Below, piece after piece: positions 2,348-55,277 of a stretch of DNA of 64,000 bases. The stretch lies in sequence record OK570374. One strand, written 5' to 3'. Position 1 is the first letter of the stretch. Each line of letters starts with the position of its first letter. The notes under the pieces are model-generated. The model had not been told where the DNA came from. It worked only from the letters and a program-made list of their open reading frames with translations, and made no database searches. Both the position numbers and the translations under genes were made by a program. The stretch is from Escherichia phage UoN_LG358_1.

Positions 2348-4324
2348 ATGGCTTTACTCTCGCCGGGCGTTGAGCTCAAAGAAACTAGTGTACAAAGCAC
2401 TATTGTTAATAATGCTACAGGCCGTGCCGCTATCGCTGGTAAATTTCAATGGGGTCCTGCATTTCAGGTAATTCAGGTAACCAATGAAGTTGAACTCGTC
2501 GATTTATTTGGTACTCCTAATAGCGAAACTGCTGATTATTTTATGTCAGCTATGAACTTCTTGCAATACGGTAATGATTTACGTGTAGCACGTGCAGTTA
2601 ATCGTGACGTGGCGAAAAACTCTTCTCCTATTGCAGAAAATATTGAAACCACAATTTCCGCGGCTGGTTCTAACTATACAGTTGGCGATGTTATCCGTGT
2701 ACGTCATAATATGGATGTAATTGAAACTGCTGGTAAAGTTACTCGTGTAGATGCTGACGGTAAAATTCTGGGAGTGTATATTCCTACTGGTAAAATTATC
2801 GCTTATGCGAAAAGTACTAACCAATATCCAGACCTAGGTCCAAACTGGACTGCAGAAATAGCTTCAAGTTCTTCTGGCGTATCTGGTACTATTACTCTTG
2901 GAAAAATTATCACTGATTCTGGTATTTTGTTAACTGAACCTGAAAATGCTTATGAAGCTATTCGTAATACCACTTTCCAGAACAATTTGAAAAAATATGG
3001 TATGCCGGGTGTAGTTGCTCTTTATCCAGGTGAAATCGGCTCTCAACTTGAAATTGAAATTGTTTCAAAAGCTACGTATGAAAAGGGCGCGGCATCTGAA
3101 CTTTCAATTTATCCAACGGGCGGAACTCGAGTTACTACCGCGCGGGCAGTATTTGGTTATGGTCCACAAACTGATGACCAATACGCGATTATTGTTCGCC
3201 GTGATGGAGCAATTGTAGAGTCAGCTGTTCTTTCAACTAAAGAAGGCGAAAAAGACATTTACGGAAATAACATCTATATGGATGATTATTTTGCCAAAGG
3301 TTCTAGTAACTATATTTTTGGAACAGCAATAGGCTGGCCTAAAGGTTTTTCTGGCATCATCAAATTGAACGGCGGCATTTCTGCGAACTCAGCTGTTACC
3401 GCAGGCGATGTAATGCAAGCATGGGATTTATTTGCTGACCGCGAAGCATTGCACGTTAACTTACTTATTGCTGGCGCGTCTGCAGGCGAAAGTTTAGAAT
3501 TTGCTTCTACTGTGCAGAAACACGTAGTTTCTATTGCCGACGAACGCCAAGATTGTCTTGCTTTAATTTCTCCTCCGCGTGAAATTATCGTAAATATTCC
3601 GTTAACTCGTGCTATTGATAACTTGGTTAACTGGCGTACAGCATCGGCAGCTTATACCGACGATAACATGAACATCAGTTCAACTTACGCATTTATTGAT
3701 GGTAACTATAAATATCAATATGATAAGTACAATGATGTTAACCGTTGGGTGCCACTTTCTGCTGATATGGCGGGTCTGTGCGCTCGTACTGATAATGTTA
3801 GTCAACCTTGGATGTCTCCAGCTGGTTATAACCGTGGTCAAATTCTGAACGTAATTAAACTAGCTGTTGAAGCTCGTCAACCGCAACGTGACCGTTTGTA
3901 TCAAGAAGCAATTAACCCGGTTACTGGCACAGGTGGTGATGGTTTTGTTCTGTTTGGCGATAAAACTGCTACCAAAGTTCCAACTCCATTTGACCGTGTT
4001 AACGTTCGTCGTTTGTTTAATATGCTGAAAACGAATATCGGTAATTCATCGAAATATCGTCTGTTTGAGATTAACGATAACTTTACTCGTTCTTCTTTCC
4101 GCATGGAAACTAGCCAGTATCTGCAGGGAATTAAAGCTCTTGGTGGTATGTATGAGTATCGCGTAGTTTGTGATACTACTAATAACACCCCATCGGTCAT
4201 CGATCGTAATGAGTTTGTTGCAAGCTTTTATGTGAAGCCCGCGAGATCGATAAATTATATTACCCTCAACTTCGTTGCAACTGCGACTGGTGCGGATTTC
4301 GACGAATTGATCGGACCGCAATAA
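2348..4324 (+). CDS. 18: contractile tail sheath protein
   Basis: 658 aa (T4 gp18 is about 659); TATAAATA box about 30 nt upstream; position after gene 17. Confidence 0.95.
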   Translation: MALLSPGVELKETSVQSTIVNNATGRAAIAGKFQWGPAFQVIQVTNEVELVDLFGTPNSETADYFMSAMNFLQYGNDLRVARAVNRDVAKNSSPIAENIETTISAAGSNYTVGDVIRVRHNMDVIETAGKVTRVDADGKILGVYIPTGKIIAYAKSTNQYPDLGPNWTAEIASSSSGVSGTITLGKIITDSGILLTEPENAYEAIRNTTFQNNLKKYGMPGVVALYPGEIGSQLEIEIVSKATYEKGAASELSIYPTGGTRVTTARAVFGYGPQTDDQYAIIVRRDGAIVESAVLSTKEGEKDIYGNNIYMDDYFAKGSSNYIFGTAIGWPKGFSGIIKLNGGISANSAVTAGDVMQAWDLFADREALHVNLLIAGASAGESLEFASTVQKHVVSIADERQDCLALISPPREIIVNIPLTRAIDNLVNWRTASAAYTDDNMNISSTYAFIDGNYKYQYDKYNDVNRWVPLSADMAGLCARTDNVSQPWMSPAGYNRGQILNVIKLAVEARQPQRDRLYQEAINPVTGTGGDGFVLFGDKTATKVPTPFDRVNVRRLFNMLKTNIGNSSKYRLFEINDNFTRSSFRMETSQYLQGIKALGGMYEYRVVCDTTNNTPSVIDRNEFVASFYVKPARSINYITLNFVATATGADFDELIGPQ

Positions 4325-28767: not shown

Positions 28768-28797
28768 ATTATAACACATCCTTCCATGGATGTAAAC
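28768..28797 (-). promoter_or_regulatory. early-type promoter (-35 GTTTACA, 17-nt spacer, -10 TATAAT)
   Basis: Read on the minus strand; drives the ORF 28449..28739. Confidence 0.6.
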
Positions 28798-40755: not shown

Positions 40756-40785
40756 ATAGTATCATAACAAAACGGAGATGTAAAC
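40756..40785 (-). promoter_or_regulatory. early-type promoter (GTTTACA-N17-TACTAT)
   Basis: Minus strand; upstream of alc-like ORF. Confidence 0.5.
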
Positions 40786-44262: not shown

Positions 44263-46517
44263 TATAATTTACAAGCTGCACAGTCATCTGCTTTTGGTTG
44301 CTCAACTTCATAGTCATCTGTGCCAGAACCATCTCTAGTGTTATGATAATAGAGACTTTTTCCGCCAAAATACCAGAAGTAAAGTAGGTCATCAAGCATC
44401 ACGCTCATTGGTACTTTACCCTTTTCATAATTCTGAGGGTCATAGTAAGTATTAGCGGAAGCGCTTTGACACAAGAACTTGGTCATGATAGCAACTTGAG
44501 TTAGGTAAGGTTTGTTACCCTGTTTAGCCAATTTCCACGCATAATCATAAAGGTCTATGTTGTGCTCAATATTGGGCACGACTTGATTAAAGGAACCCTC
44601 TTTTGACTCTTTAACAGAGACTGGTCCACGCGGAGGTTCGATACCGTTTGTACTATTTGATACTTGGCTGCTTGACTCGCATGGCATGAGTGCAGATAAG
44701 GTGCTATTACGGATGCCGTAGTTAACCAAGTCTTTCCGCAGGCTCTCCCAGTCACACACATAATTGGGCGCTGCGATTTGGTCAATCTTTTTATTGTACC
44801 AGTCGATAGGTAATTCGCCTCTAGACCAACGAGTTTCTGAATAATATTCGCAAGGTCCTTTTTCTTTGGCGAGTTTAATTGAGGCTTTAATAAGTGCATA
44901 TTGTAATCTCTCAAATAATTCATGAGTTAAATCATTTGCGTCGGCATATGATGCAAAATTATCAGCCAACCAAGCAGCGTAGTTTGTAACACCTACACCT
45001 AATGCCCGCCGCTTCTTAGCTTTCAATGCTTCTTTTACAGGATAACCTTGATAGTCCAATAAATTATCTAAAGCACGAACTTGAACTTCTGCAAGTTCTT
45101 CAATCTTGTCTTGGTCCTGCCAGTCAAAATTACCCAACACAAATGCAGCTAATGTGCACAACGCAATTTCAGGGTCATCACTACCAACGTCTTTGGTCGG
45201 TAAAGCAATTTCTAAACAAAGATTACTCTGTTTAATTGGCGATGTTTCACGAATGAACGGAGTATAACGGTTCATATTATCAGTGAACGCTGGATACACT
45301 CGAGCCGTGCCAGAACGTTCTGTCATGAACAATTCAAACAATTCAAGAGCTTTGATGCGTTTCTTGCGAATAATTGGATTTTTTTCTAGTTCTTCATACA
45401 ATTCACGGAATTTATCTTCATCCCGGAAATAAGAATCGAACAATTCGCCATTAGCCACATCTGGACTGAACAGTGTGATGTACCCATTTTTACCGAGACG
45501 TTCCATCATCAAATCATTGATTTGCAGACCATAGTCTAGATGACGAATACGGTTTTCATCTACGCCTTTGTTGTTCTTTAATACCAACAGGTTTTCAACC
45601 TCAAGATGCCACATTGGATAATAAAGAGTAGCTGCACCACCACGTACACCGCCTTGAGAACAAGATTTTACTGCAGTCTGAAAATGTTTCCAGAAAGGAA
45701 TTACGCCAGTATGTTTTACTTCGCCATTACCAATTTTTGAGCCTTCAGCTCGAATCATACCGGCGTTGATGCCGATACCAGCTCGCTTGCTGATATACTT
45801 AATAATACTGTTACTTGCCGCATTAATAGAATTCAGTGAATCGCCAGCTTCAATAACTACACAAGAACTAAACTGACGAGTAGGAGTACGAGCCCCTGCC
45901 ATAATCGGTGTAGGCAATGAAATCTGTCGAGTAGATACAGCGTCATAAAAGCGAATAATATGAGCCAGACGATTTTCTGGTTCTTCTTGGTGTAGTGCCA
46001 TACCAATTAGCATGAATGCAAATTGAGGTGTCTCGTAAATTTTACCAGTTGAACGGTCTTTAACCAGATATTTTTCTTTGAGCTGCATCGCCCCAGCGTA
46101 AGTTAAATCAAAATCACGTTCGTGTTTGATTTTTGATTCCAAGAAAGTGATTTCTTCAGCTGAATACTTGGAGAGTAATTCTGAATCATATTTACCCTCA
46201 TTAACACAATAAGAAATGTGGTCAATAAAAGACGGCGGTTCGAATTGCCCGTACACTTCTTTGCGTAATGCGAACATAGCCAGGTTAGAAGCAACATATT
46301 GATAATCCGGTTCTTCTTTTGAAATGGAGTTTGCAGCTACTTTAATAGCAGCTTGTTGAATATCCTTAGTGCTGATTCCATCTTGGATATGGCTTTTAAT
46401 ACGCTCATATAATTCATATGGGTCAATTGAAGTACCTTCAGCGGCCCATACTAAAATCTTTTGAAGTTTGGATGGAATAAATTCCTGTTTAATTCCCGAT
46501 GATTTTACTACTTGCAT
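44262..46517 (-). CDS. nrdA: ribonucleotide reductase large subunit
   Basis: 751 aa (T4 NrdA about 754); position. Confidence 0.95.
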   Translation of the reverse strand: MQVVKSSGIKQEFIPSKLQKILVWAAEGTSIDPYELYERIKSHIQDGISTKDIQQAAIKVAANSISKEEPDYQYVASNLAMFALRKEVYGQFEPPSFIDHISYCVNEGKYDSELLSKYSAEEITFLESKIKHERDFDLTYAGAMQLKEKYLVKDRSTGKIYETPQFAFMLIGMALHQEEPENRLAHIIRFYDAVSTRQISLPTPIMAGARTPTRQFSSCVVIEAGDSLNSINAASNSIIKYISKRAGIGINAGMIRAEGSKIGNGEVKHTGVIPFWKHFQTAVKSCSQGGVRGGAATLYYPMWHLEVENLLVLKNNKGVDENRIRHLDYGLQINDLMMERLGKNGYITLFSPDVANGELFDSYFRDEDKFRELYEELEKNPIIRKKRIKALELFELFMTERSGTARVYPAFTDNMNRYTPFIRETSPIKQSNLCLEIALPTKDVGSDDPEIALCTLAAFVLGNFDWQDQDKIEELAEVQVRALDNLLDYQGYPVKEALKAKKRRALGVGVTNYAAWLADNFASYADANDLTHELFERLQYALIKASIKLAKEKGPCEYYSETRWSRGELPIDWYNKKIDQIAAPNYVCDWESLRKDLVNYGIRNSTLSALMPCESSSQVSNSTNGIEPPRGPVSVKESKEGSFNQVVPNIEHNIDLYDYAWKLAKQGNKPYLTQVAIMTKFLCQSASANTYYDPQNYEKGKVPMSVMLDDLLYFWYFGGKSLYYHNTRDGSGTDDYEVEQPKADDCAACKL

Positions 46518-46588
46518 TTTATATCCTTAGTTATCAGATAATTTATTTTATCATCAAAGACTTTTAGCTTATCGTTTCCTCAAAGACT

Positions 46589-46611
46589 AAAATGGCAGCC
46601 CGAAGGCTGCC
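46589..46611 (-). terminator. hairpin upstream of nrdA
   Basis: GGCAGCC-cgaa-GGCTGCC; short minus-strand U-run. Confidence 0.45.
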
Positions 46612-46631
46612 TGTAGTGTTATATTTATTAT

Positions 46632-46820
46632 TTAAGCTTCTATTAATACAACAACTTTAACTGGACTTCTGTTCATATCAATACTCAGAAATATTGATTG
46701 GATAATATAAAAATATCCATTAATCATTATTTGACCGCCTTCTTTCAATTCGCGACCAATATCACTTTCAGTTTCGGCAAATACTTTATCACCATGCTCT
46801 GATGTAAATTTAATAAGCAT
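46632..46820 (-). CDS. hypothetical protein
   Basis: 62-aa ORF with GAGGAA RBS between td and nrdA. Confidence 0.4.
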   Translation of the reverse strand: MLIKFTSEHGDKVFAETESDIGRELKEGGQIMINGYFYIIQSIFLSIDMNRSPVKVVVLIEA

Positions 46821-46829
46821 AATATTCCT

Positions 46830-46907
46830 CTATAGAAACAGATTCAACGAAATAATTATAATAAGAAAAATGATAAGCGCAATAGTTAGTTTGTTCATAG
46901 CAGTCAT
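46830..46907 (-). CDS. putative 25-aa hydrophobic peptide
   Basis: Not in track; MTAMNKLTIALIIFLIIIISLNLFL; ATG overlaps td stop (ATGA). Confidence 0.25.
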   Translation of the reverse strand: MTAMNKLTIALIIFLIIIISLNLFL

Positions 46908-47215
46908 ACGGCCATTTTTCCTTTAATTACTGGGTGGCTTTCATAGTTTTTAAGAATAAAGTCGTTTATCTTCATATGAGTACAAACCCAATATAACTGC
47001 ATTTCAGTATCCCAATCTTCAAAACTATCTGGAAAATTAATTTCCAGTTCGCATAACTCTTTTGGCTCTCTGCAAAGAATTTCTTTACACTGTTCTGTAT
47101 GGTTCAAATATATGTGGGTATTGCCGCCAGTAAATACTAGATGCCCTGGTTTTAACCCAGTCATTTTAGCTATGATATGAATTAAAGCTCCGTAAGACGC
47201 GATATTAAATGGTAG
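46904..47215 (-). CDS. td: thymidylate synthase, exon 2
   Basis: Begins LPFNIASYGAL.., continuing the ..QRSVDVFLG end of exon 1 (ThyA FLGLPFNIASY junction). Confidence 0.9.
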   Translation of the reverse strand, partial: LPFNIASYGALIHIIAKMTGLKPGHLVFTGGNTHIYLNHTEQCKEILCREPKELCELEINFPDSFEDWDTEMQLYWVCTHMKINDFILKNYESHPVIKGKMAV

Positions 47216-48227
47216 CATTGTGTTCAGCTGAGGACGTTAATCTCAGCCCGGAATTTATCCAGCTGCATGTCACCATGCAGAGCAGACTATATCTTCATCT
47301 CAATGAGATGTCTATCGTTTCGAGCCACTTGGCCCTACTCCCTAAAGGGATAGTCGTTCGGCATTTAGCAATAAAACCAGTTCCATTTATCAGATTTTAC
47401 ACGGTATGTAACTAAGCCTGAAGAAATCTCAAAATGTCTAGCAGCATCTGCGGCGCATTCAAAAATAATACCATCACATGAAATTTTCTTAATATTAGAT
47501 GGCTTTCTGCCCTTTGCCTTGTTAGACAATATTTCTCGTGTTTCTTTTGAATGTTCTTTACCGAAGAACGGATTACTTTGTCCTGAACGGTCTCTACAAT
47601 TTGAACAAGTTTTAAATGCTGGGCTTATTCTTTTCCCGCACTTGCAAAACTTATGTTTTTCTGGGTTCCACCGTCCATTTAATTCACCTGGTTTACCATA
47701 AATTACTTTACGTCCATCAATACCAAGTTTTTCCATCTTAGCTTTAACAGTAGCAGCTCGCTTTTTTATAATTTCTTTCTTTAATGGATAATTAGTAAAA
47801 ACATCTCCAAAAGAAGCATCTGCGATGTTATAACCATTTTGTTTTGAATTTAGTGTTTTAATCCAGAAATTTTCTCGTTCAATAATTATATCTTTTTCGT
47901 ATGGAACTTCTTCCAATACAGAACATTCAAATACATTACCATGTTTATTATAAGACCGTTGGAGTTTTATAGAATGATGTGCATTATTAGATAAATCGGA
48001 AAAATGACGTTTCCATCTTTTATCAAAATCCTTTGCACTTCCAACATAAATCTTATTGTTTAAAACATTTTTAATTTGATAAATTCCACTTTTCATAAAC
48101 ACCTCTAAATTATAGAAGTATTTATTAAAGGGCGGTCCTACACATTTAGCACGGGATTGTCTACGAGAGAGGTTCCCCGTTTAGATAGATTACAAGTATA
48201 AGTCACCTTATACCCAGGCCTAAATTA
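47216..48227 (-). mobile_element. group I self-splicing intron in td, carrying a homing endonuclease gene
   Basis: Intron 5' end reads TAATTTAGGCCTGGGTATAAGGTGACTTATACTTGTAATCTATCTAAACGGGG on the minus strand, matching the remembered T4 td intron; 3' end ..ATG before CTACCATTTAAT; about 1012 nt. Confidence 0.9.
47365..48096 (-). CDS. I-TevI: intron-encoded GIY-YIG homing endonuclease I-TevI-like
   Basis: Start at ATG 48096 (MKSGIYQIKN..KIYVGSA GIY-YIG); track ORF begins at an upstream GTG; C-terminal ..VTYRVKSDKWNWFY. Confidence 0.9.
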   Translation of the reverse strand: MKSGIYQIKNVLNNKIYVGSAKDFDKRWKRHFSDLSNNAHHSIKLQRSYNKHGNVFECSVLEEVPYEKDIIIERENFWIKTLNSKQNGYNIADASFGDVFTNYPLKKEIIKKRAATVKAKMEKLGIDGRKVIYGKPGELNGRWNPEKHKFCKCGKRISPAFKTCSNCRDRSGQSNPFFGKEHSKETREILSNKAKGRKPSNIKKISCDGIIFECAADAARHFEISSGLVTYRVKSDKWNWFYC

Positions 48228-48776
48228 ACCCAAGAAAACATCGACACTGCGTTGATACCACTGGAGGTCCAGAAACCCATTTCTTACGTTAAATTGATAT
48301 ACCATATGGCATGGTGGAAGCGCCATCTTAGAGAGCTCTAGAGGGTTCCAAGCTGTCACAATCTGCCTTCGGTCTGCCGGCATTTCTTTTATTCTATCAA
48401 TGACTAACTTCAATTGGTCCACGCCCATGAAATCACGCCATTGTTTACCATAAACCGGTCCTAGTTCACCGTCAGTATAACCCATCGAAACAGCTTGATT
48501 TTCATAATTATCATCCCAGACGGTTTTCCCTTCTGTTCGAGAACCATGTTGAATTTCGCGGAGGTCATCTACATTTGTTGAGCCAGATAAGAACCACAGC
48601 AATTCAGCAATGCACGATTTCCACGCGAGTTTCTTTGTTGTTACTGCGGGAAATCCTTCTTGTAAATCAAACCGAAGCTGAGTGCCAAATACAGCAATTG
48701 TTCCCGTGCCCGTACGATCATCAGTCTCATAGCCTTCGTCAAAAATGTGTTGAATTAGTTCTTGATATTGTTTCAT
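48228..48776 (-). CDS. td: thymidylate synthase, exon 1
   Basis: 183 codons ending ..DVFLG; stop codon of the track ORF is the first intron triplet; PPCH active-site motif. Confidence 0.9.
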
Positions 48777-49123
48777 TGTTTTCCAACTTTAAAGAGAATT
48801 TCAGCGCCTTTCTTTTCAAAACGTCCTTGCATCCAAAGGAGACCATTTTCAACTTTCATATAACCAAGATTAATATAGTCCAACATTTGACGATTACTGA
48901 AAAACGCTTTAAATGTTCCATGGTTAGAACGTACATATATACCATTAGTGCACGCAGAGTGGATATTCTCCAACGGCGCCCTAACCTCATAAAACCCGTG
49001 AGGAATAGTAACATATTTCTCTGGATTTCGTTTAAACTGGTCAATCGTAGGGGCCATTCCATCGATAACCAAAGCCCAGTTCTTTTGCTTCTCTTCAACA
49101 ATTAAATCTAATTTAGCAGTCAT
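48773..49123 (-). CDS. hypothetical protein inserted between frd and td
   Basis: 116-aa ORF; stop overlaps td start (ATGA); 12 nt after frd stop. Confidence 0.5.
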   Translation of the reverse strand: MTAKLDLIVEEKQKNWALVIDGMAPTIDQFKRNPEKYVTIPHGFYEVRAPLENIHSACTNGIYVRSNHGTFKAFFSNRQMLDYINLGYMKVENGLLWMQGRFEKKGAEILFKVGKQ

Positions 49124-49135
49124 ATTATTTCCAGT

Positions 49136-49729
49136 TTAAATTTTTACATAAACATCTTCTGAAATATTAGTAAGTTCGTCAATATTATACCAATGAGTCT
49201 CAACAAGTTCCATATCTTCACTGATATTCCATATAAAATCTGCTGAGAGTTTAATATCAGAATTTACACGGTGTTTTTTGCGAATAGTTGTGCATATAAT
49301 TTTATCTGCGTAAATTCTTGAATGCTCAATAATATGTGCGCCACCAATAACAGAATAATTGGCATCATCGCGTTGAATAAAACAATTATACCCAAAATCA
49401 TGCCCAGAAACTTGAACTTTATTACCTTCTAAAAATTGTTGAAACTGTGTTTCATTAATATAGAGCTCGGCAGTTTGTCCTGATTTAGTTTTTGCATAAG
49501 GACGAGAAAAATCTTGCACTACAATATGAGAACGTCCATGAAGTTTTCCTCTTAAGCTCATAAATGTTTTTGCACCCATAATAAGAACAGTATCTTTAGT
49601 TCTGGAAGCAAAATTTTGCATGTCTTGCTTGATATGTCCCCATGGAAGACCAGTGTTTAACCCAAACGCAAATTCATTTTTATTGTCGACAGTTTTAGTA
49701 GGGCAATACGCAAAAATTAACTGAATCAT
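49136..49729 (-). CDS. frd: dihydrofolate reductase
   Basis: 197 aa (T4 Frd 193); position upstream of td. Confidence 0.9.
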   Translation of the reverse strand: MIQLIFAYCPTKTVDNKNEFAFGLNTGLPWGHIKQDMQNFASRTKDTVLIMGAKTFMSLRGKLHGRSHIVVQDFSRPYAKTKSGQTAELYINETQFQQFLEGNKVQVSGHDFGYNCFIQRDDANYSVIGGAHIIEHSRIYADKIICTTIRKKHRVNSDIKLSADFIWNISEDMELVETHWYNIDELTNISEDVYVKI

Positions 49730-49824
49730 TATCCTTGCCTCATTTTACAATTAGGACAAATTCCACCTGCGAACAAAAGTCCGCTGCCGCAATATTTACA
49801 CTCCCAGTCGGTTAAAATTTTCAT
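49729..49824 (-). CDS. putative 31-aa zinc-ribbon peptide
   Basis: Not in track; MKILTDWECKYCGSGLLFAGGICPNCKMRQG with two CxxC pairs; AGGAA RBS; ATGA and TAATG overlaps with neighbours. Confidence 0.3.
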   Translation of the reverse strand: MKILTDWECKYCGSGLLFAGGICPNCKMRQG

Positions 49825-50030
49825 CTTAAGTTCCTAATACGTTCACGGATGATATTCAAAAACTGCCGTGTCATTTCGATGTTAGCTTCTCGCCATAAGA
49901 AGTTACTATTCATATCATTATATTCCGCGGTCACATTGTCGTTAAGCTCACATAATGCACACAATTTGCCGTGTTTTACTGCATCAGAAATTGCTTTATC
50001 AAACTCTTCTTTTGACATTGTAATTTGCAT
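49821..50030 (-). CDS. hypothetical protein
   Basis: 69-aa ORF. Confidence 0.4.
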   Translation of the reverse strand: MQITMSKEEFDKAISDAVKHGKLCALCELNDNVTAEYNDMNSNFLWREANIEMTRQFLNIIRERIRNLR

Positions 50031-50356
50031 TATTTGTTTGAACCCTTTTTAGAGGCTAAAACCATGGTACGAAGCATTCTAAGGCCTTTATCAACAGCTT
50101 CAGCAATTTCGCCCGCCACGTTCTCATTGAATAGACCGAGAGTTCCTGATTTGATATCTTCCATTAAAATGTAGTTTATGTCATTTTCAGTTAAAGAAAT
50201 TTCTGGACCATTTCCACACGAAAAATTAATCTTACAAAATACATTCTGTCCACGTTGTTCTTGGTAGCGAATATTAATGTGTGTCACACCAGGAACATGG
50301 TCAAACTGACAACGAACATTAACTTCAGGAGCAGCAGAACACCAGATATCAGCCAT
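50030..50356 (-). CDS. hypothetical protein
   Basis: 108-aa ORF; 1-nt overlap. Confidence 0.4.
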   Translation of the reverse strand: MADIWCSAAPEVNVRCQFDHVPGVTHINIRYQEQRGQNVFCKINFSCGNGPEISLTENDINYILMEDIKSGTLGLFNENVAGEIAEAVDKGLRMLRTMVLASKKGSNK

Positions 50357-50631
50357 TATAATTCTTCCTTAGCTTCTTTAAATGATTTTTTGAAATCTTC
50401 AACATATTCGATAGGAATCCAGAACCCAGAACCATAACCGTCTTCATAGCATGGGCACATATCGCAAAACTGTTGCCAATGAACAGTTTTACCTTCTACG
50501 GTGAAGGGAGCTTCCATTTCGCACAAAGACTCTTCAATAAGTTCAATCATCGCTGGATTTTTATCATAGATGCAGAAATTCCAAACACCTTTAACTGTGG
50601 AATCTTTAATGCTTTCACGCTGTAATTTCAT
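50356..50631 (-). CDS. hypothetical acidic Cys-rich protein
   Basis: 91 aa; early promoter 50662..50691; GAGGA RBS. Confidence 0.45.
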   Translation of the reverse strand: MKLQRESIKDSTVKGVWNFCIYDKNPAMIELIEESLCEMEAPFTVEGKTVHWQQFCDMCPCYEDGYGSGFWIPIEYVEDFKKSFKEAKEEL

Positions 50632-50661
50632 TTTATTATCCTCATTTGTTTTGATAGGGTT

Positions 50662-50691
50662 ATAGTATCATAACCATAACCCGTTGTAAAC
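50662..50691 (-). promoter_or_regulatory. early-type promoter (GTTTACA-N17-TACTAT)
   Basis: Minus strand; within 45-bp repeat 50646..50691. Confidence 0.5.
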
Positions 50692-50693
50692 GG

Positions 50694-51074
50694 TCATTTG
50701 AAAATTTTTTGTAAAAGTTCAATGATTTCGTCTACGTTTTGTTTTGTAACAACACAATGAATTTTAGTTACACCGTCAGTATCTTTACATTCGTCGTCAA
50801 GAACTGGTTCTTCATATTCGCGAAAGCAATAGAACTCATTATCGTAAAGTTCAAAATAACAATCACCTAGACCATCGTCGCAAAAGCACTCACCATTAGC
50901 GCAGACAATTTCAGTTACAAAATATTGGTTGTCAAATAATTCTATAGATTTTACTTCAAACCAACCGCCATTTTCGTGGATAATATCTACCATCTCAGTA
51001 TTATTCAAAGGGCTTAAGCCAATAAAATCATTAATAAGCTCTGGGACTAGTTCGTATTTTTTGCCTATTTTCAT
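50694..51074 (-). CDS. hypothetical acidic Cys-rich protein
   Basis: 126-aa ORF, D/E- and C-rich. Confidence 0.45.
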   Translation of the reverse strand: MKIGKKYELVPELINDFIGLSPLNNTEMVDIIHENGGWFEVKSIELFDNQYFVTEIVCANGECFCDDGLGDCYFELYDNEFYCFREYEEPVLDDECKDTDGVTKIHCVVTKQNVDEIIELLQKIFK

Positions 51075-51088
51075 TTTGATTTCCTCAA

Positions 51089-51316
51089 TTATTCTTTAAT
51101 CAAACCCATGTAAAACATTTTATCTTCAGGTTCCATGCCATCGCAGTACTCAATTTCCATAAAACGATTAATAGCTTTTAAAGGACCATTAATGACAACG
51201 TTCATGTTCCATGATTTGGAATTCTGTGAATTAGCGATACGAAGTTCTGGGTATCGATTACGAATAACTTCTTCAATGTATTCAAAATCTACAACATCAA
51301 TATCAACACTAGCCAT
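51089..51316 (-). CDS. hypothetical acidic protein
   Basis: 75 aa; early promoter 51347..51376; GAGGAA RBS. Confidence 0.45.
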
Positions 51317-51346
51317 TTTATTTTCCTCGTTTGTTTTGATAGGGTT

Positions 51347-51376
51347 ATAGTATCATAACCATAACCCATTGTAAAC
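51347..51376 (-). promoter_or_regulatory. early-type promoter (GTTTACA-N17-TACTAT)
   Basis: Minus strand; within the second copy of the 45-bp repeat (51331..51376). Confidence 0.5.
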
Positions 51377-51378
51377 AA

Positions 51379-51636
51379 TTAATTGATATCACTCATATAC
51401 ATTTCGATATCTTCATATTCGCAAATTTCCAAATACTCACGGATATCTTCAACTTCACCAATGATTTCAACTAAAGGCCATCCGCCAGCGGGTCCACGTT
51501 CTGCTATAACGTTAAACTCCAATTTACCAGGAAGAATTTCCATGAACCGAGTGCAATCATCAAATTCTAAATCAATAATCATTCCGCCTTCGTCTTTGAT
51601 AATTTCACATACTAAGTCAAGTTCTAAACGTGCCAT
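51379..51636 (-). CDS. hypothetical acidic protein (MARLELD paralog A)
   Basis: Start at second ATG (AAGGAA RBS); MARLELDLV..GGWP; own early promoter. Confidence 0.45.
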   Translation of the reverse strand: MARLELDLVCEIIKDEGGMIIDLEFDDCTRFMEILPGKLEFNVIAERGPAGGWPLVEIIGEVEDIREYLEICEYEDIEMYMSDIN

Positions 51637-51667
51637 GATATTTTCCTTCATTTGTTTTGATAAGGTA

Positions 51668-51697
51668 ATAGTAACACAGTTTAAAGCGGATGTAAAC
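51668..51697 (-). promoter_or_regulatory. early-type promoter (GTTTACA-N17-TACTAT)
   Basis: Minus strand; upstream of MARLELD paralog A. Confidence 0.5.
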
Positions 51698-51795
51698 AGT
51701 TAATTGCAAATTTCTGCATCAACTTTACTCTTTCACAACTTAATTCATTGCCTAGAAAAATCATATACAATAGTCATTTGAACTCAATAACATCG

Positions 51796-51826
51796 TATGA
51801 GGTTATACCATAACTATAACCTCATA
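51796..51826. other. perfect 12-bp hairpin/palindrome
   Basis: TATGAGGTTATA-ccataac-TATAACCTCATA; no flanking U-run. Confidence 0.45.
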
Positions 51827-51840
51827 ATGTAGTATACGTA

Positions 51841-52101
51841 TTATTGTTCCATAAATTCATCTAGCAACCAATCAATGTCTTCCCATTGATTATCTTCAAG
51901 CCATTTGCGGATATTTTTTTCAGACCCGCGAAGATAAATCACTGGCCAGCCGCCGCCGGTGCCTTCTTCGATTATAAGGTCAAAATCAAGACCATGGTCA
52001 ACATCATAAAAACGGCTTCCATCCTCAAAAATTAAATCAGTTGCAATTCCACGCTCATTGCGGTGAACTTCAGCTACAATATCAAGTTCTAAACGTGCCA
52101 T
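51841..52101 (-). CDS. hypothetical acidic protein (MARLELD paralog B)
   Basis: Start at second ATG (GAGGAA RBS); MARLELDIV..GGWP; own early promoter. Confidence 0.45.
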   Translation of the reverse strand: MARLELDIVAEVHRNERGIATDLIFEDGSRFYDVDHGLDFDLIIEEGTGGGWPVIYLRGSEKNIRKWLEDNQWEDIDWLLDEFMEQ

Positions 52102-52132
52102 TTTCAATTTCCTCATTTGTTTTGATGAGATA

Positions 52133-52162
52133 ATAGTAACACAGTTTTTGGAGGATGTAAAC
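52133..52162 (-). promoter_or_regulatory. early-type promoter (GTTTACA-N17-TACTAT)
   Basis: Minus strand; upstream of MARLELD paralog B. Confidence 0.5.
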
Positions 52163-52184
52163 GGTTAGCTCCAGAAACAACAAA

Positions 52185-52204
52185 GGAGCCCGTAGGCTCC
52201 TTTT
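52185..52204 (-). terminator. hairpin downstream of gene 32
   Basis: GGAGCC-cgta-GGCTCC; U-rich flank is weak on the minus strand. Confidence 0.45.
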
Positions 52205-52208
52205 ATTA

Positions 52209-53114
52209 TTAAAGACCGTTCAAAATGTCGTCCAGGTCATCATCGTCAGATGAACTAACATCTGAAGTAGAATTGTTAGTTGTAGAACCAGATGAGAAAG
52301 CTTCCATATCTTTATCAAAAGCGTCCAGGTCATCAGCTACTTTATCAGCCTGTCGTTCAGCTTTTGCTGCGGCACCGCCCATAGCAGCAGTTCCCATAAC
52401 TTTCTCAAATTTCTTTTGGTTGTCGTCAAAAGATTTAAATTTATCTTTAGAGGTCATTTCAGTTAAATCAACCATCTGGTCATTGAGAGATTTCTGAACA
52501 GATTCATCGTCAATATTTGGGATTTCAGATTGGCCCAAGAATTTCGATTCGTCGTAGTTACTAAAGCCTGATACTTTCTTAACTTTCAGTACAAAGTTTG
52601 CGCCTTCATAAGGACAAGTTACATCAACTGGAGTTTCACCCATATCAGTATCAACTGCAATCATTGCGTTGATTTTGTCCCAAATTTTCTTACCAAAACG
52701 ATATTTGAAAACTTTACCTTCATTTTCTGGAGCAGCCGGGTCTTTAATAACCAGGATATTCGCCCAGTAAGAAGTTTTGCGTTTCAGTAGTTTATATTCT
52801 TCTTGGTTTGTGTTATAGCTGTCGTTTTTAGACAGATGCTGGCATACCGGGCAAGAATCGTAATCACCGTGTGTAGATGTGCAATTTTCAATATACCACT
52901 GATTATTTTTCTTAAAGCCATGATTAATCAAAATTGCAAACGGAGCAGCTTCTTCATTTTTGGAAGGCAGAAAACGAATCACCGCTTGGCCATTACCTGC
53001 ATTATCGAGCTTAAGTTTCCATTCACCTTTATCTGAATCTTGGAAACCACCTTTGTTACCAGACAGAGCGGCCAGTTGAGCTTGAAGTTGAGCGGGATTT
53101 TTGCGTTTAAACAT
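52209..53114 (-). CDS. 32: single-stranded DNA-binding protein
   Basis: 301 aa; zinc site [11 protein letters not shown]; translation matches remembered T4 gp32. Confidence 0.95.
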
Positions 53115-53128
53115 GGGTATTTACCTTA

Positions 53129-53782
53129 TTAATATTTACAGTTTTTTACAGTTTTTATGAACAGTTGTTTTGCTTCTAATGCATCAACATCAAGAATTTT
53201 CTTGTATGCGTTGAGCTTAGTTGAATAATTTGACCAAACTAAATTATCTGTCGCCTGGTCATGATTATTTATAATATCCAAAAATGAATCAAGAATTATA
53301 AAAGTTTCGAAAGAAATAATACTACTTTGAAGTAGTTTAAACACATATGATGTGTTGATTTTGTTATTATATACAAATATTTCGTTTAGCGTTTTAACTT
53401 CAACTTTTTTGCTAAAGTAATAAATGTTTCTGACATCTTCTTCAAACGTGCTTTTAATCATTTTCAATTTGCCGATATATTCTCTATAGAATACCAAAGC
53501 ATCGGCGTCACTGATATCTCCAATCCAAGCATCTTGGTTAGCAACCAGATTGCTCACGAAGATTATTGCAAGCTCTTTAAGCTTATATTTTTCTGACAGT
53601 TTTTCAAAGAAATATTTATCGCGGCGCTTCTGATACGCCTTATCAGAAACCCGCATACGCCAGTTGTATTTTATTACATCATATCTGCCAGCGAAATGAT
53701 TTTTTAACATCAAATACAGCAAATAGACTGATTTTCCATTGATGTATCTATCACCATCAGGCGGCATGCGGATTTTAATCAT
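53129..53782 (-). CDS. 59: helicase loader
   Basis: 217 aa, same as T4 gp59; MIKIRMP..GKSVY.. matches. Confidence 0.85.
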   Translation of the reverse strand: MIKIRMPPDGDRYINGKSVYLLYLMLKNHFAGRYDVIKYNWRMRVSDKAYQKRRDKYFFEKLSEKYKLKELAIIFVSNLVANQDAWIGDISDADALVFYREYIGKLKMIKSTFEEDVRNIYYFSKKVEVKTLNEIFVYNNKINTSYVFKLLQSSIISFETFIILDSFLDIINNHDQATDNLVWSNYSTKLNAYKKILDVDALEAKQLFIKTVKNCKY

Positions 53783-54102
53783 AACAGAAATTCTAATGTA
53801 TTAGTTTTTTCACCACGAGAAACACTAGGCCTTAACATGTGTTCATCTATAGCTTCAGACCTAATTTTTTCAATAATACCAGATGGAACAAATTTAGAGT
53901 ACATTGTTTCTGGAATAGAATTTTCTTCCATCCACATAGTAGTGGCTTCTAAATATCCCAGTCCATTTTCTTCAACTAAAGTTTCAATAATAAATCCGTT
54001 TTGCTGCTTATCTAGCAGCTCATTTAGTTTATCATTTTTTTCTTTAGCGGATGAAATCGGAGTTGTTTCGTCATTTAGTGAAAATAGAGTCATAAATTTC
54101 AA
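53779..54102 (-). CDS. 33: late transcription co-activator
   Basis: 107 aa at the T4 gene 33 position. Confidence 0.7.
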   Translation of the reverse strand: MKFMTLFSLNDETTPISSAKEKNDKLNELLDKQQNGFIIETLVEENGLGYLEATTMWMEENSIPETMYSKFVPSGIIEKIRSEAIDEHMLRPSVSRGEKTNTLEFLL

Positions 54103-54358
54103 CTACCTTATCTTTTTCTTCTTCAAATTGTTCACGAGTGTCTTTATGATACATCGCCAGCAGTTGGTTAAAAGCTTTTGAATCAACACCGAGGTCGTCT
54201 TTGGCGGATGTTTTCAAATCAGCAATTAGTACTCGATAACCGGAAATTTTCAGAAGATGGTCAGAAGCTTCTTTAATTTTCTTACGGAGGTCTTCACCAT
54301 GAATAGCTTCATCAAATTCTACAGCAACTTTCTTTTCTTTGGCCATTTTAAAACTCAT
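54071..54358 (-). CDS. dsbA: dsDNA-binding protein
   Basis: 95 aa between 33 and rnh; assigned by position and size. Confidence 0.6.
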   Translation of the reverse strand: MSFKMAKEKKVAVEFDEAIHGEDLRKKIKEASDHLLKISGYRVLIADLKTSAKDDLGVDSKAFNQLLAMYHKDTREQFEEEKDKVVEIYDSIFTK

Positions 54359-55277
54359 TAATATGATTAGTTAATTTAGAAAGACCCGACTTCACAAAGT
54401 AAGAATAAATCTTACCGCGAGGAGGTGTTTTGTATAATTCATAATATTCTATAATCGGTTTAGCAATTTCTTCTGGAATATAACTAAAATCGATAAGAAC
54501 TCTATTTTCAAGATAACGATTATATTCGGCTTCTGTTAAAAGCGATTTCATTCCTTCTGGACCAGCATCTAAGCACTGCTCGAGAAGCTTAGTTGAAAAT
54601 GAAGGAGTTCGTTCACCATCAATTTTAGTGTACCAATAATCAGAACGCACTTTAACAGACGCGACGTTATCTTTGCGATCGCCTTTTAATACTTTAGTTA
54701 AACATTCAAGTTCAGCGTCCCCGGTTTTGCATACAACGAATTTCTTCTGCATCGGTGACCATTGTTTAACATTAGGATATCTGTGAAGCTGTTTAAAGTC
54801 GCCATCAGAAGAAACAATCATAATTTTGTGTCCCTTCAAAGAAAGATGAGGAACAAGAATACCGATATGGTCATCCGCTTCATATTTGTCAATATTCATA
54901 ATAGTGTAAGGCATATATTTTTGAAATTCATCGATAATTGTGCGAATTCCAGTAAAATATCCTTCCCAATCCCATAATGACTCTTCCCGGCCTTGTTTAC
55001 GGTTCTTTTTATAATAATACGCAATATCGCGTCGCCAATAACCAGACTTAGCGTTATCAGTACAAATTACAACTTTTTCATAACCTTGTTTGCGAAATTG
55101 TAAAACATTCTTTTTAAGAGTGCTTAGAACCAGATGCCGCATCATTGCGGGTTGAATTTTCTCTTTATCAGAGAATGTATTCAGCGCTGCAGCCAAAGCA
55201 ATTTGGGATAAATCCACTAACACAACACCTTCTTTCGTTTGGTCTTCTTCGCCAAACAGACAATCTAGATTTGACAT
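54348..55277 (-). CDS. rnh: RNase H / flap 5'-3' exonuclease
   Basis: 309 aa (T4 RNase H 305); position before gene 34. Confidence 0.85.
   Translation of the reverse strand: MSNLDCLFGEEDQTKEGVVLVDLSQIALAAALNTFSDKEKIQPAMMRHLVLSTLKKNVLQFRKQGYEKVVICTDNAKSGYWRRDIAYYYKKNRKQGREESLWDWEGYFTGIRTIIDEFQKYMPYTIMNIDKYEADDHIGILVPHLSLKGHKIMIVSSDGDFKQLHRYPNVKQWSPMQKKFVVCKTGDAELECLTKVLKGDRKDNVASVKVRSDYWYTKIDGERTPSFSTKLLEQCLDAGPEGMKSLLTEAEYNRYLENRVLIDFSYIPEEIAKPIIEYYELYKTPPRGKIYSYFVKSGLSKLTNHINEF

Follow-up and report, generated by a model that had tools for sequence, protein, structure and literature searches.

The interval between gene 32 and frd in Escherichia phage UoN_LG358_1 (sequence record OK570374; the whole stretch of 64,000 nucleotides that was analysed is referred to as the window) holds eight small open reading frames (ORFs), which are designated A to H in the order of their transcription. 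We consider this block to be a hyperplastic accessory-gene region in which recombination at promoter-early stem-loop (PeSL)-like cassettes shuffles genes for early, acidic and non-enzymatic proteins, and we put the probability of this reading at about 0.8. Such early-gene blocks are ordinary in T4-like phages, and the present one is a case of known genome architecture, not a new system. What is new here is limited to the link that places proteins with a GPGGGWP loop and Frd.3 in one superfamily, and to the well-resolved cassette junctions. Gene families, cassettes and junctions lying within cassettes were all observed in the interval, as was the grouping of A, B and Frd.3 in one superfamily. 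Over 4.1 kb, the interval is 99.1% identical to that of Salmonella phage STP4-a and 97.3% identical to that of phage S16. Both of these phages belong to the Straboviridae, genus Gelderlandvirus, and so does the window.

All genes of the block are on the minus strand, as are the other features of the block described below. They are flanked upstream by gene 32 (52209-53114; a 301-amino-acid ORF annotated as single-stranded DNA-binding protein in STP4-a and S16) and downstream by frd (49136-49729; dihydrofolate reductase of 197 amino acids). An earlier inspection of the letters alone, the sequence-only reading, had proposed four early-type promoters in this block, and consensus matches bear this out, since a 47-nt cassette is present upstream of A (52116-52162), B (51651-51697), C (51330-51376) and E (50645-50691). 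Cassette A consists of GTTTACA-N17-TACTAT with a TG-extended -10 element and the conserved 5' untranslated region (UTR) ATCAAAACAAA, and a sigma-70 scan found TTTACA-17-TACTAT with a TG-extended -10 element upstream of all four genes. The strict 47-nt pattern GTTTACA-N14-TG-N-TACTAT-N3-C-N2-ATCAAAACAAA has exactly 4 matches in 64 kb, all of them in the block, with 0 expected. The PeSL promoter consensus of the T4/PST group, TTTACW-N17-TAYWAT (PMC4122927), matches 6 times in the 64 kb, compared to 0.34 expected, and 4 of these 6 matches are the four cassettes of the block. The remaining two are located at 28768-28796 and 40756-40784, both on the minus strand. Two subtypes can be distinguished among the cassettes, namely A/B and C/E. 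The cassettes are part of a 73-nt direct repeat that is present four times, the copies that hold cassettes C and E being 90% identical. The Shine-Dalgarno (SD) sequences GAGGAA, AAGGA, GAGGAA and GAGGAT follow in cassettes A, B, C and E, respectively, at 6-8 nt before the ATG. A GAGGAA ribosome-binding site had been claimed for both A and B; it is indeed found 7 nt upstream of the start of A, but B has AAGGA instead.

No separate promoter precedes D, F, G, H or frd, and the start and stop codons of these genes abut or overlap those of their neighbours. We therefore predict that the block comprises four early transcription units, which are A, B, frd.3-frd.2 (C-D) and frd.1-F-G-H (E-F-G-H) running into frd. 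The last of these would be driven by cassette E, probably including frd as well, because the start codon of frd overlaps the stop codon of H.

The 32-frd interval was mapped in 13 phages. The view that the block is expanded is correct with respect to T4, which has only frd.1 to frd.3 (3 ORFs). However, the block is typical when compared to other phages, where the interval contains 5-11 genes (for example, 10 ORFs in Merlin, 11 in S16, 8 in CC31 and 6 in KP179), and it is T4 that represents the minimal case. About ten families (A/B, frd.3, frd.2, frd.1, F, G, H, u1, u4 and others) show a combinatorial pattern of presence and absence, and gene content varies even among Gelderlandviruses whose aligned segments of the interval share 92-99% identity. 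Phages NP4 and CF-SP2 are without frd.3 and frd.2, which corresponds to an insertion or deletion (indel) of 685 bp, and the two blocks of the alignment share exactly the 63-nt cassette. The cassette at this junction is a hybrid, with a C-type 5' side and an E-type 3' side. In NP4 the crossover falls into the core of 39 identical nucleotides, and in CF-SP2 it lies within the -35 region; these different crossover points indicate that two independent events took place. SEA1 is without A (465-bp indel), the junction being at cassettes A and B, and in CGG4-1 the B copy has the 3' end, and with it the C-terminus, of A. The interval thus offers a clean natural case of cassette-mediated module loss and stacking, with two crossover points for the 685-bp deletion, in a genus outside the PeSL papers. 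STP4-a, NP4, CF-SP2 and SEA1 together represent a ready-made natural deletion series.

In the mechanism that we propose, each unit would open with a near-identical sigma-70-type T4 early-promoter cassette, composed of GTTTACA, a 17-nt spacer, TG-N-TACTAT, the 5' UTR, the SD sequence and ATG. These repeated PeSL-like cassettes would provide portable homology for recombination, through which whole promoter-plus-gene modules may be deleted, inserted or stacked. Recombination at the cassettes would explain why gene content differs among near-identical phages, and also why divergent homologues stand in tandem, as is the case for A and B and for a pair of frd.2 genes in S16. Gene shuffling mediated by PeSLs has been described before, with crossovers mapped between the -10 element and the SD sequence or ATG (PMC2839356), and the junctions in NP4, CF-SP2, SEA1 and CGG4-1, as read from the alignments, match this mechanism and these crossover positions (PMC2839356). 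The present cassettes share with the PeSLs of T4-type phages (Arbiol et al. 2010, PMC2839356; Comeau et al. 2014, PMC4122927) the repeated sigma-70-like promoter-SD-ATG arrangement, a position between conserved core genes, ahead of small ORFs of unknown function, and the indels between close relatives with crossovers between the -35 element and the SD sequence. The two PeSL papers cover neither the 32-frd locus nor Gelderlandvirus (PMC2839356, PMC4122927). The formation of excised mini-circles during infection is a further property of PeSLs, assayed by inverse PCR on infected cells (PMC2839356).

Several observations weigh against this interpretation. Firstly, the published anatomy of PeSLs is matched incompletely. 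A canonical upstream stem-loop was found only at cassette A, where it is the terminator hairpin of gene 32 (52182-52203; a stem of 9 bp, 5 of them GC pairs, and a T-rich stretch after it). This hairpin is situated directly upstream of the cassette, at a distance of about 20 nt, and the folding energy of the terminator region is -27.1 kcal/mol (z -4.1). By contrast, cassettes C and E have a 10-bp hairpin that overlaps the spacer and the -10 element (z about -2.6), and cassette B has no significant hairpin (z -0.13), the nearest one being about 100 nt upstream. Secondly, the promoter calls in this phage are consensus matches. Thirdly, some indels have no cassette at their junctions. This applies to F, the deletion of which in Melville, CF-SP2 and SEA1 coincides precisely with its overlapping start and stop codons, and to u1, which S16, Melville and NP4 carry as an insertion at the H/frd junction. 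Cassette recombination can therefore not be the sole mechanism. Fourthly, the direction of the events, deletion or insertion, was assigned by parsimony. Lastly, where function is concerned, the proposed binding of host factors is deduced from indirect features, and the T4 data hint that at least one of the genes may be more central. In a CRISPRi-ART screen of T4, frd.1 and frd.3 were scored "Not Fit", and frd.2 was scored marginally "Fit" (0.83, p 0.027) (PMC11879866).

Another hairpin, with a stem of 11-12 bp, is located downstream of ORF A (51796-51826; -15.8 kcal/mol, z -2.7). Its sequence (GAGGTTATAGTTATGGTATAACCTC) resembles that of the hairpin in cassettes C and E (GGGTTATGGTTATGATACTATAACCC), and it is possibly a degraded cassette ("half PeSL") or a terminator. 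In CGG4-1 this hairpin stands after the B copy instead. A scan of positions 45000-54500 against Rfam detected no RNA family within the block.

The neighbouring genes A (51841-52101, 86 amino acids) and B (51379-51636, 85 amino acids) had been regarded as paralogs, each with its own promoter. Alignment of the two proteins confirms their relationship (42% identity, E 2e-23), and each gene is preceded by its own cassette. Both proteins match phrog_5922 over their full length (E 1e-43 for A and 1e-38 for B), and both carry a variant of the GPGGGWP loop, which reads GTGGGWP in A and GPAGGWP in B. Two features support the start of A at MARLELD, namely the SD sequence GAGGAA at a distance of 7 nt upstream and the N-termini of homologues, those from other genera all starting with M-[AGK]-[RKQ]-[LI]. 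The starts of A and B in the sequence-only reading are better than the upstream ATGs in the records of STP4-a and S16, because the SD sequence overlaps these ATGs and the N-termini of the homologues agree with the downstream starts. The annotated A/B entries of these phages are at 2003-2323 and 1584-1859 in S16, and at 1584-1859 and 2049-2321 in STP4-a (locus coordinates). In both records A is annotated from an ATG that overlaps the SD sequence, and gp160.1 of S16 is annotated from a TTG inside the promoter cassette. The records of Melville, NP4 and CF-SP2, as well as the homologue alignments, favour the MARLELD start.

Searches with tblastn identified the A/B family in 206 phage records (Klebsiella, Enterobacter, Salmonella, Citrobacter, Serratia, Raoultella, Cronobacter and Proteus), and Escherichia was absent among the listed organism names of these matches. 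An A/B-type gene was found between gene 32 and frd in all 8 of the 8 non-Gelderlandvirus loci that were examined, apart from that of Serratia phage PS2. In this Muldoonvirus the A/B-family gene (4001-4252, locus coordinates) is not beside gene 32, but in a small-ORF block near rI and nrdC.10, which suggests that the module moves between hyperplastic regions. Among the matches listed, two A/B copies occur only in the Gelderlandvirus group, the members of which have Salmonella hosts. B copies with more than 80% identity were found in about 15 records, and the examples among the matches listed are all from Gelderlandvirus phages of Salmonella.

The orthologue of A in Moonvirus and Jiaodavirus phages comes next after gene 32. 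A neighbour-joining tree places A with the genes of Merlin, KP179 and Roth20, and B with the gene of Citrobacter phage CkP1, which has a single B-type gene in the same 32-frd slot. Identity is 87% between A and the Merlin gene and 58% between B and the CkP1 gene. Since B is closer to the CkP1 gene than to A (42%), and since the two fall into separate clades of the tree, A and B appear not to be the result of a recent tandem duplication, but to be anciently diverged members of separate clades. A recent duplication in situ, by which gene dosage would be under selection as in counter-defence gene amplification, would account for the adjacent position, the same orientation and the same cassette subtype of the two genes, and also for their 72% DNA identity over 158 nt of promoter and 5' coding region along with the 42% identity of the proteins. 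However, this scenario is very improbable in view of the identities and clades mentioned above and of the fact that each type occurs alone in the same slot in other genera. The data fit either the stacking of diverged alleles or a very old duplication. The simplest reading would be that A and B are two diverged alleles brought into tandem by recombination at the promoter cassette that they have in common.

Stacked divergent homologues were encountered at two further places. S16 has two tandem frd.2 genes, gp159.1 and gp159 (2622-2996 and 3018-3398, locus coordinates), which are only 34% identical, where the window and STP4-a have one. The junction of this frd.2 insertion in S16 overlaps the ribosome-binding site and start region of frd.2 (window 51059-51093). 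The other place is between frd and td, where the window has an ORF for a basic protein of 116 amino acids (48773-49123, minus strand) that belongs to phrog_1928 and has no Pfam match. Two divergent tandem copies of this family (22-27% identity) are located downstream of frd in Merlin and CC31. Judged by their sequences, the frd.2 pair of S16 and the pair in Merlin and CC31 repeat the pattern of A and B.

A profile of 11 A/B-type sequences was used to search 1.84 billion representative proteins. This search resulted in 125 matches (representative clusters), nearly all of which have the GPGGGWP loop. The shared order of elements is a beta-strand, the loop G-[PSA]-[GA]-G-W-P, a strand ending in Gly, an amphipathic helix with I..WL, and an acidic C-terminal tail. 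Most of the 125 matches are stand-alone proteins of 70-100 amino acids, P0015 and P0018 have two copies of the domain, and some GPGGGWP domains are embedded in acidic proteins of 200-1700 amino acids. The superfamily is thus much broader than phrog_5922, and includes beta-alpha-beta-beta-alpha forms of 70-80 amino acids, tandem repeats, C-terminal domains and the motif-less Frd.3 branch. When 20 of the long GPGGGWP proteins were scanned against Pfam, no informative fused domain was detected. Comparison of the 68-sequence alignment A5 with Pfam returned only FRD3 and three isolated single-member matches, all of them far under the gathering scores.

The connection to Frd.3 is supported by several observations. 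The 68-sequence profile and the Frd.3 profile were aligned by hhalign over 76 columns, covering Frd.3 in full, with a probability of 96.3% (E 1.8e-9). The link was seen only with this broad profile, whereas the narrow A1 profile gave a probability of only 28%. Two bridging proteins, P0155 and P0157, combine a GPAGGWP loop with a full-length match to Pfam FRD3 (E 5.7e-6 and 1e-3, respectively). The AlphaFold2 model of ORF A, a confident one (mean predicted local distance difference test score, pLDDT, of 84.4), has five strands and two C-terminal helices, with the loop between strands 4 and 5. A Foldseek comparison of this model with viral models retrieved family members in T4-like and Erwinia phages, and also gave weak matches (template modelling score 0.47-0.59) to the "8.8 kDa protein in frd-Gp32 intergenic region", which is Frd.3. 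By these profile and model comparisons, Frd.3 is a divergent, motif-less branch of the GPGGGWP superfamily. Consequently, the window has three tandem members of this superfamily (A, B and C), each behind its own cassette. The superfamily joins phrog_5922, Pfam Phage_FRD3 and more than 100 unannotated metagenomic clusters, and it offers a handle on T4 frd.3 and a target for functional screens. We also consider, as a tentative idea only, that the GPGGGWP/Frd.3 domain is an unrecognised, widespread phage effector module that binds a conserved host target, with different clades being stacked in a genome to broaden the host range or to overcome variant defences.

The genomic contexts of the distant members are mostly short metagenomic contigs. 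The gene for P0027, a multidomain GPGGGWP protein of 567 amino acids, lies next to ArdA and ART-PolyVal-like genes on a 29.8-kb contig (Logan SRR25429143). The ORFs of this contig do not translate under table 11, one neighbouring gene having 9 in-frame stop codons, and the contig probably derives from a stop-codon-recoded phage or mobile element. The gene for another multidomain member, P0090, adjoins a T4-type portal gene. The ArdA/ART-PolyVal and portal contexts are single cases, which are too few to generalise.

All eight ORFs predicted for the block, seven of 69-126 amino acids and one of 31 amino acids with CxxC motifs, were recovered on the minus strand at the predicted positions, and all of them match PHROG families of unknown function. 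Three of the seven larger ORFs are full-length members of the T4 families frd.3, frd.2 and frd.1, and their order and position are those found in T4. These are ORF C (frd.3; 51089-51316, 75 amino acids; Pfam Phage_FRD3, E 6e-39), ORF D (frd.2; 50694-51074, 126 amino acids; Pfam FRD2, E 3e-33) and ORF E (frd.1; 50356-50631, 91 amino acids; Pfam DUF5417, E 4e-40). Compared to T4, the window has five extra ORFs, namely A, B, F, G and H. ORF F (50030-50356, 108 amino acids), which is absent from T4, matches Pfam DUF7247 (E 7e-42). The Pfam matches extend over the full length, with bit scores well beyond the gathering cut-offs (132.8 against 28.1 for C, 114.9 against 29 for D, 136.5 against 23.9 for E and 142.9 against 27 for F). 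ORF G (49821-50030, 69 amino acids) belongs to phrog_8520 and was predicted by eye to be helical. ORF H (49729-49824, 31 amino acids), which has the pattern CxxC-x10-CxxC and is a zinc-ribbon candidate, belongs to phrog_17317. The sequence-only reading had allowed that the block might consist of ordinary conserved frd.x genes of known function. This holds for three of the seven with regard to family membership, though not with regard to a known function.

H is annotated in S16 (gp156.2), but not in STP4-a. The short length of the ORFs and the missing annotation of H could be taken to mean that some or all of them are not real genes. This is hardly credible, as each ORF matches a Pfam or PHROG family with an E-value below 1e-24, the homologues are conserved at the protein level across genera, and each ORF has an SD sequence or a coupled start codon. 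For H itself, the nucleotide identity to Klebsiella phage Roth20 is 69%, and 8 of the 19 changed codons are synonymous. The four cysteines of H (C9-x2-C12 ... C23-x2-C26) are kept in Roth20 as well as in S16, Melville, SEA1 and CF-SP2. None of the curated Pfam zinc-ribbon models matched H above its cut-off, the scores of the best matches, DUF1272, A2L_zn_ribbon and Zn_ribbon_LapB, being 14-16 bits compared to cut-offs of 23-25; H may be too short to reach them.

The description of the block as rich in Asp and Glu is justified, since A to E have isoelectric points (pI) of 4.05-4.55 and contain 19-27% Asp plus Glu. A, B and D have a pI of 4.05-4.2 and net charges of -14, -17 and -18, respectively. 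A pI below 4.6 was calculated for 5 of the 7 small ORFs of the block, compared to 5 of the 30 small ORFs elsewhere in the window (Fisher p=0.009). Thus, 10 of the 37 small non-overlapping ORFs in the window have such a low pI, and five of them form the contiguous run A-E. The block had also been called Cys-rich. The Cys content is indeed high in D (5.6%), E (5.5%), F (3.7%), B (3.5%) and H (12.9%), with no Cys in A, but most of these residues are not conserved in homologue alignments. Conserved are only the four cysteines of H and the CxxC of Frd.1, and the richness in Cys is therefore mostly a matter of composition and not the sign of a metal site. Accordingly, Cys-richness was rejected as a metal-site signature for Frd.2, F, G and B. 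Frd.2 has 7 Cys, of which 0 are invariant. Frd.1 has the conserved motif C-D-x-C-P-x-Y-E-D-G...G-F-W-I; the T4 protein is shorter than that of the window (80 compared to 91 amino acids) and has only the CxxC pair. The AlphaFold2 model of Frd.2, likewise confident (pLDDT 86.0), has two helices, a small SH3/Tudor-like barrel and a C-terminal helix. Matches of Frd.2 to ankyrin and DARPin sequences were rejected, as they concerned a short helix of biased composition, and 0 stretches passed.

Scans of all eight ORFs against Pfam, NCBIfam and PADLOC returned DUF-type or FRD families only, and nothing functional. Sequence searches of the PDB with A, Frd.2, Frd.1, F and the superfamily profile gave no significant match. 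In the literature, searches for frd.1, frd.2, frd.3, the DUF names and the GPGGGWP motif led only to the CRISPRi-ART screen and to the use of frd.2 as a control in quantitative PCR. The mRNA of frd.2 is detectable 5 min after T4 infection (PMC6070864).

We infer that the products of the block are small acidic proteins that are expressed early, non-essential and non-enzymatic. Binding to macromolecules of the host or the phage is their most likely mode of action, and they would then be modulators of host takeover, host range or counter-defence. Their accessory status is suggested by the natural deletions and by the "Not Fit" scores of frd.1 and frd.3 in T4. Early promoters, patchy distribution and dispensability are as expected of accessory host-directed factors.

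It had been proposed more specifically that the acidic proteins are DNA mimics or anti-defence factors. According to this idea, A, B and Frd.2 in particular would resemble Ocr, ArdA or Arn, and would block restriction or nucleic-acid-targeting immunity early in infection. Like T7 Ocr, ArdA and T4 Arn, the proteins are small, have a very low pI of about 4.1 with the strongly negative charges given above, and are predicted to be expressed early. Their patchy distribution, which follows the phage genus, and the gene for P0027 beside ArdA and ART-PolyVal genes fit this idea as well. On the other hand, no similarity to Ocr, ArdA or Arn was detected in sequence or fold. Entries for these three proteins were not among the 60 matches listed for the model of A or the model of Frd.2, and no sequence match in PADLOC, NCBIfam or the PDB lends direct support. 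Furthermore, the ArdA neighbourhood is a single case, with another multidomain member being encoded beside a T4-type portal gene, and acidity is common in this phage, as shown by the 10 of 37 small ORFs with a pI below 4.6. We therefore regard DNA mimicry as rather unlikely.

Alternatively, the small proteins could be directed not at the host, but at the neighbouring machinery for DNA precursors and replication (gp32, Frd, Td and NrdAB), as auxiliary subunits or regulators. This would agree with the A/B-type gene being between 32 and frd in 8 of the 8 non-Gelderlandvirus phages examined outside PS2, with the apparent translational coupling into the frd-td operon, and with Frd.2 being the only "Fit" gene of unknown function in T4 (PMC11879866). 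Such a role is nevertheless quite unlikely for the proteins of the block, as their genes are lost naturally while the core genes stay, the family member of PS2 resides in a different neighbourhood, and frd.1 and frd.3 are "Not Fit" in T4 (PMC11879866). The structural matches are too weak to count in its favour.

Downstream of the block, the td gene for thymidylate synthase is split (46904-48776, minus strand), with exon 1 at 48225-48776 and exon 2 at 46904-47218. Between the two exons, a match to the Rfam family Intron_gpI was found at 47263-47440 with 42.6 bits, compared to a gathering score of 50 (E 2.4e-8). The same region contains an ORF for a GIY-YIG protein of 245 amino acids (47365-48102) that is very similar to I-TevI. 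The td intron of T4 has the same arrangement.

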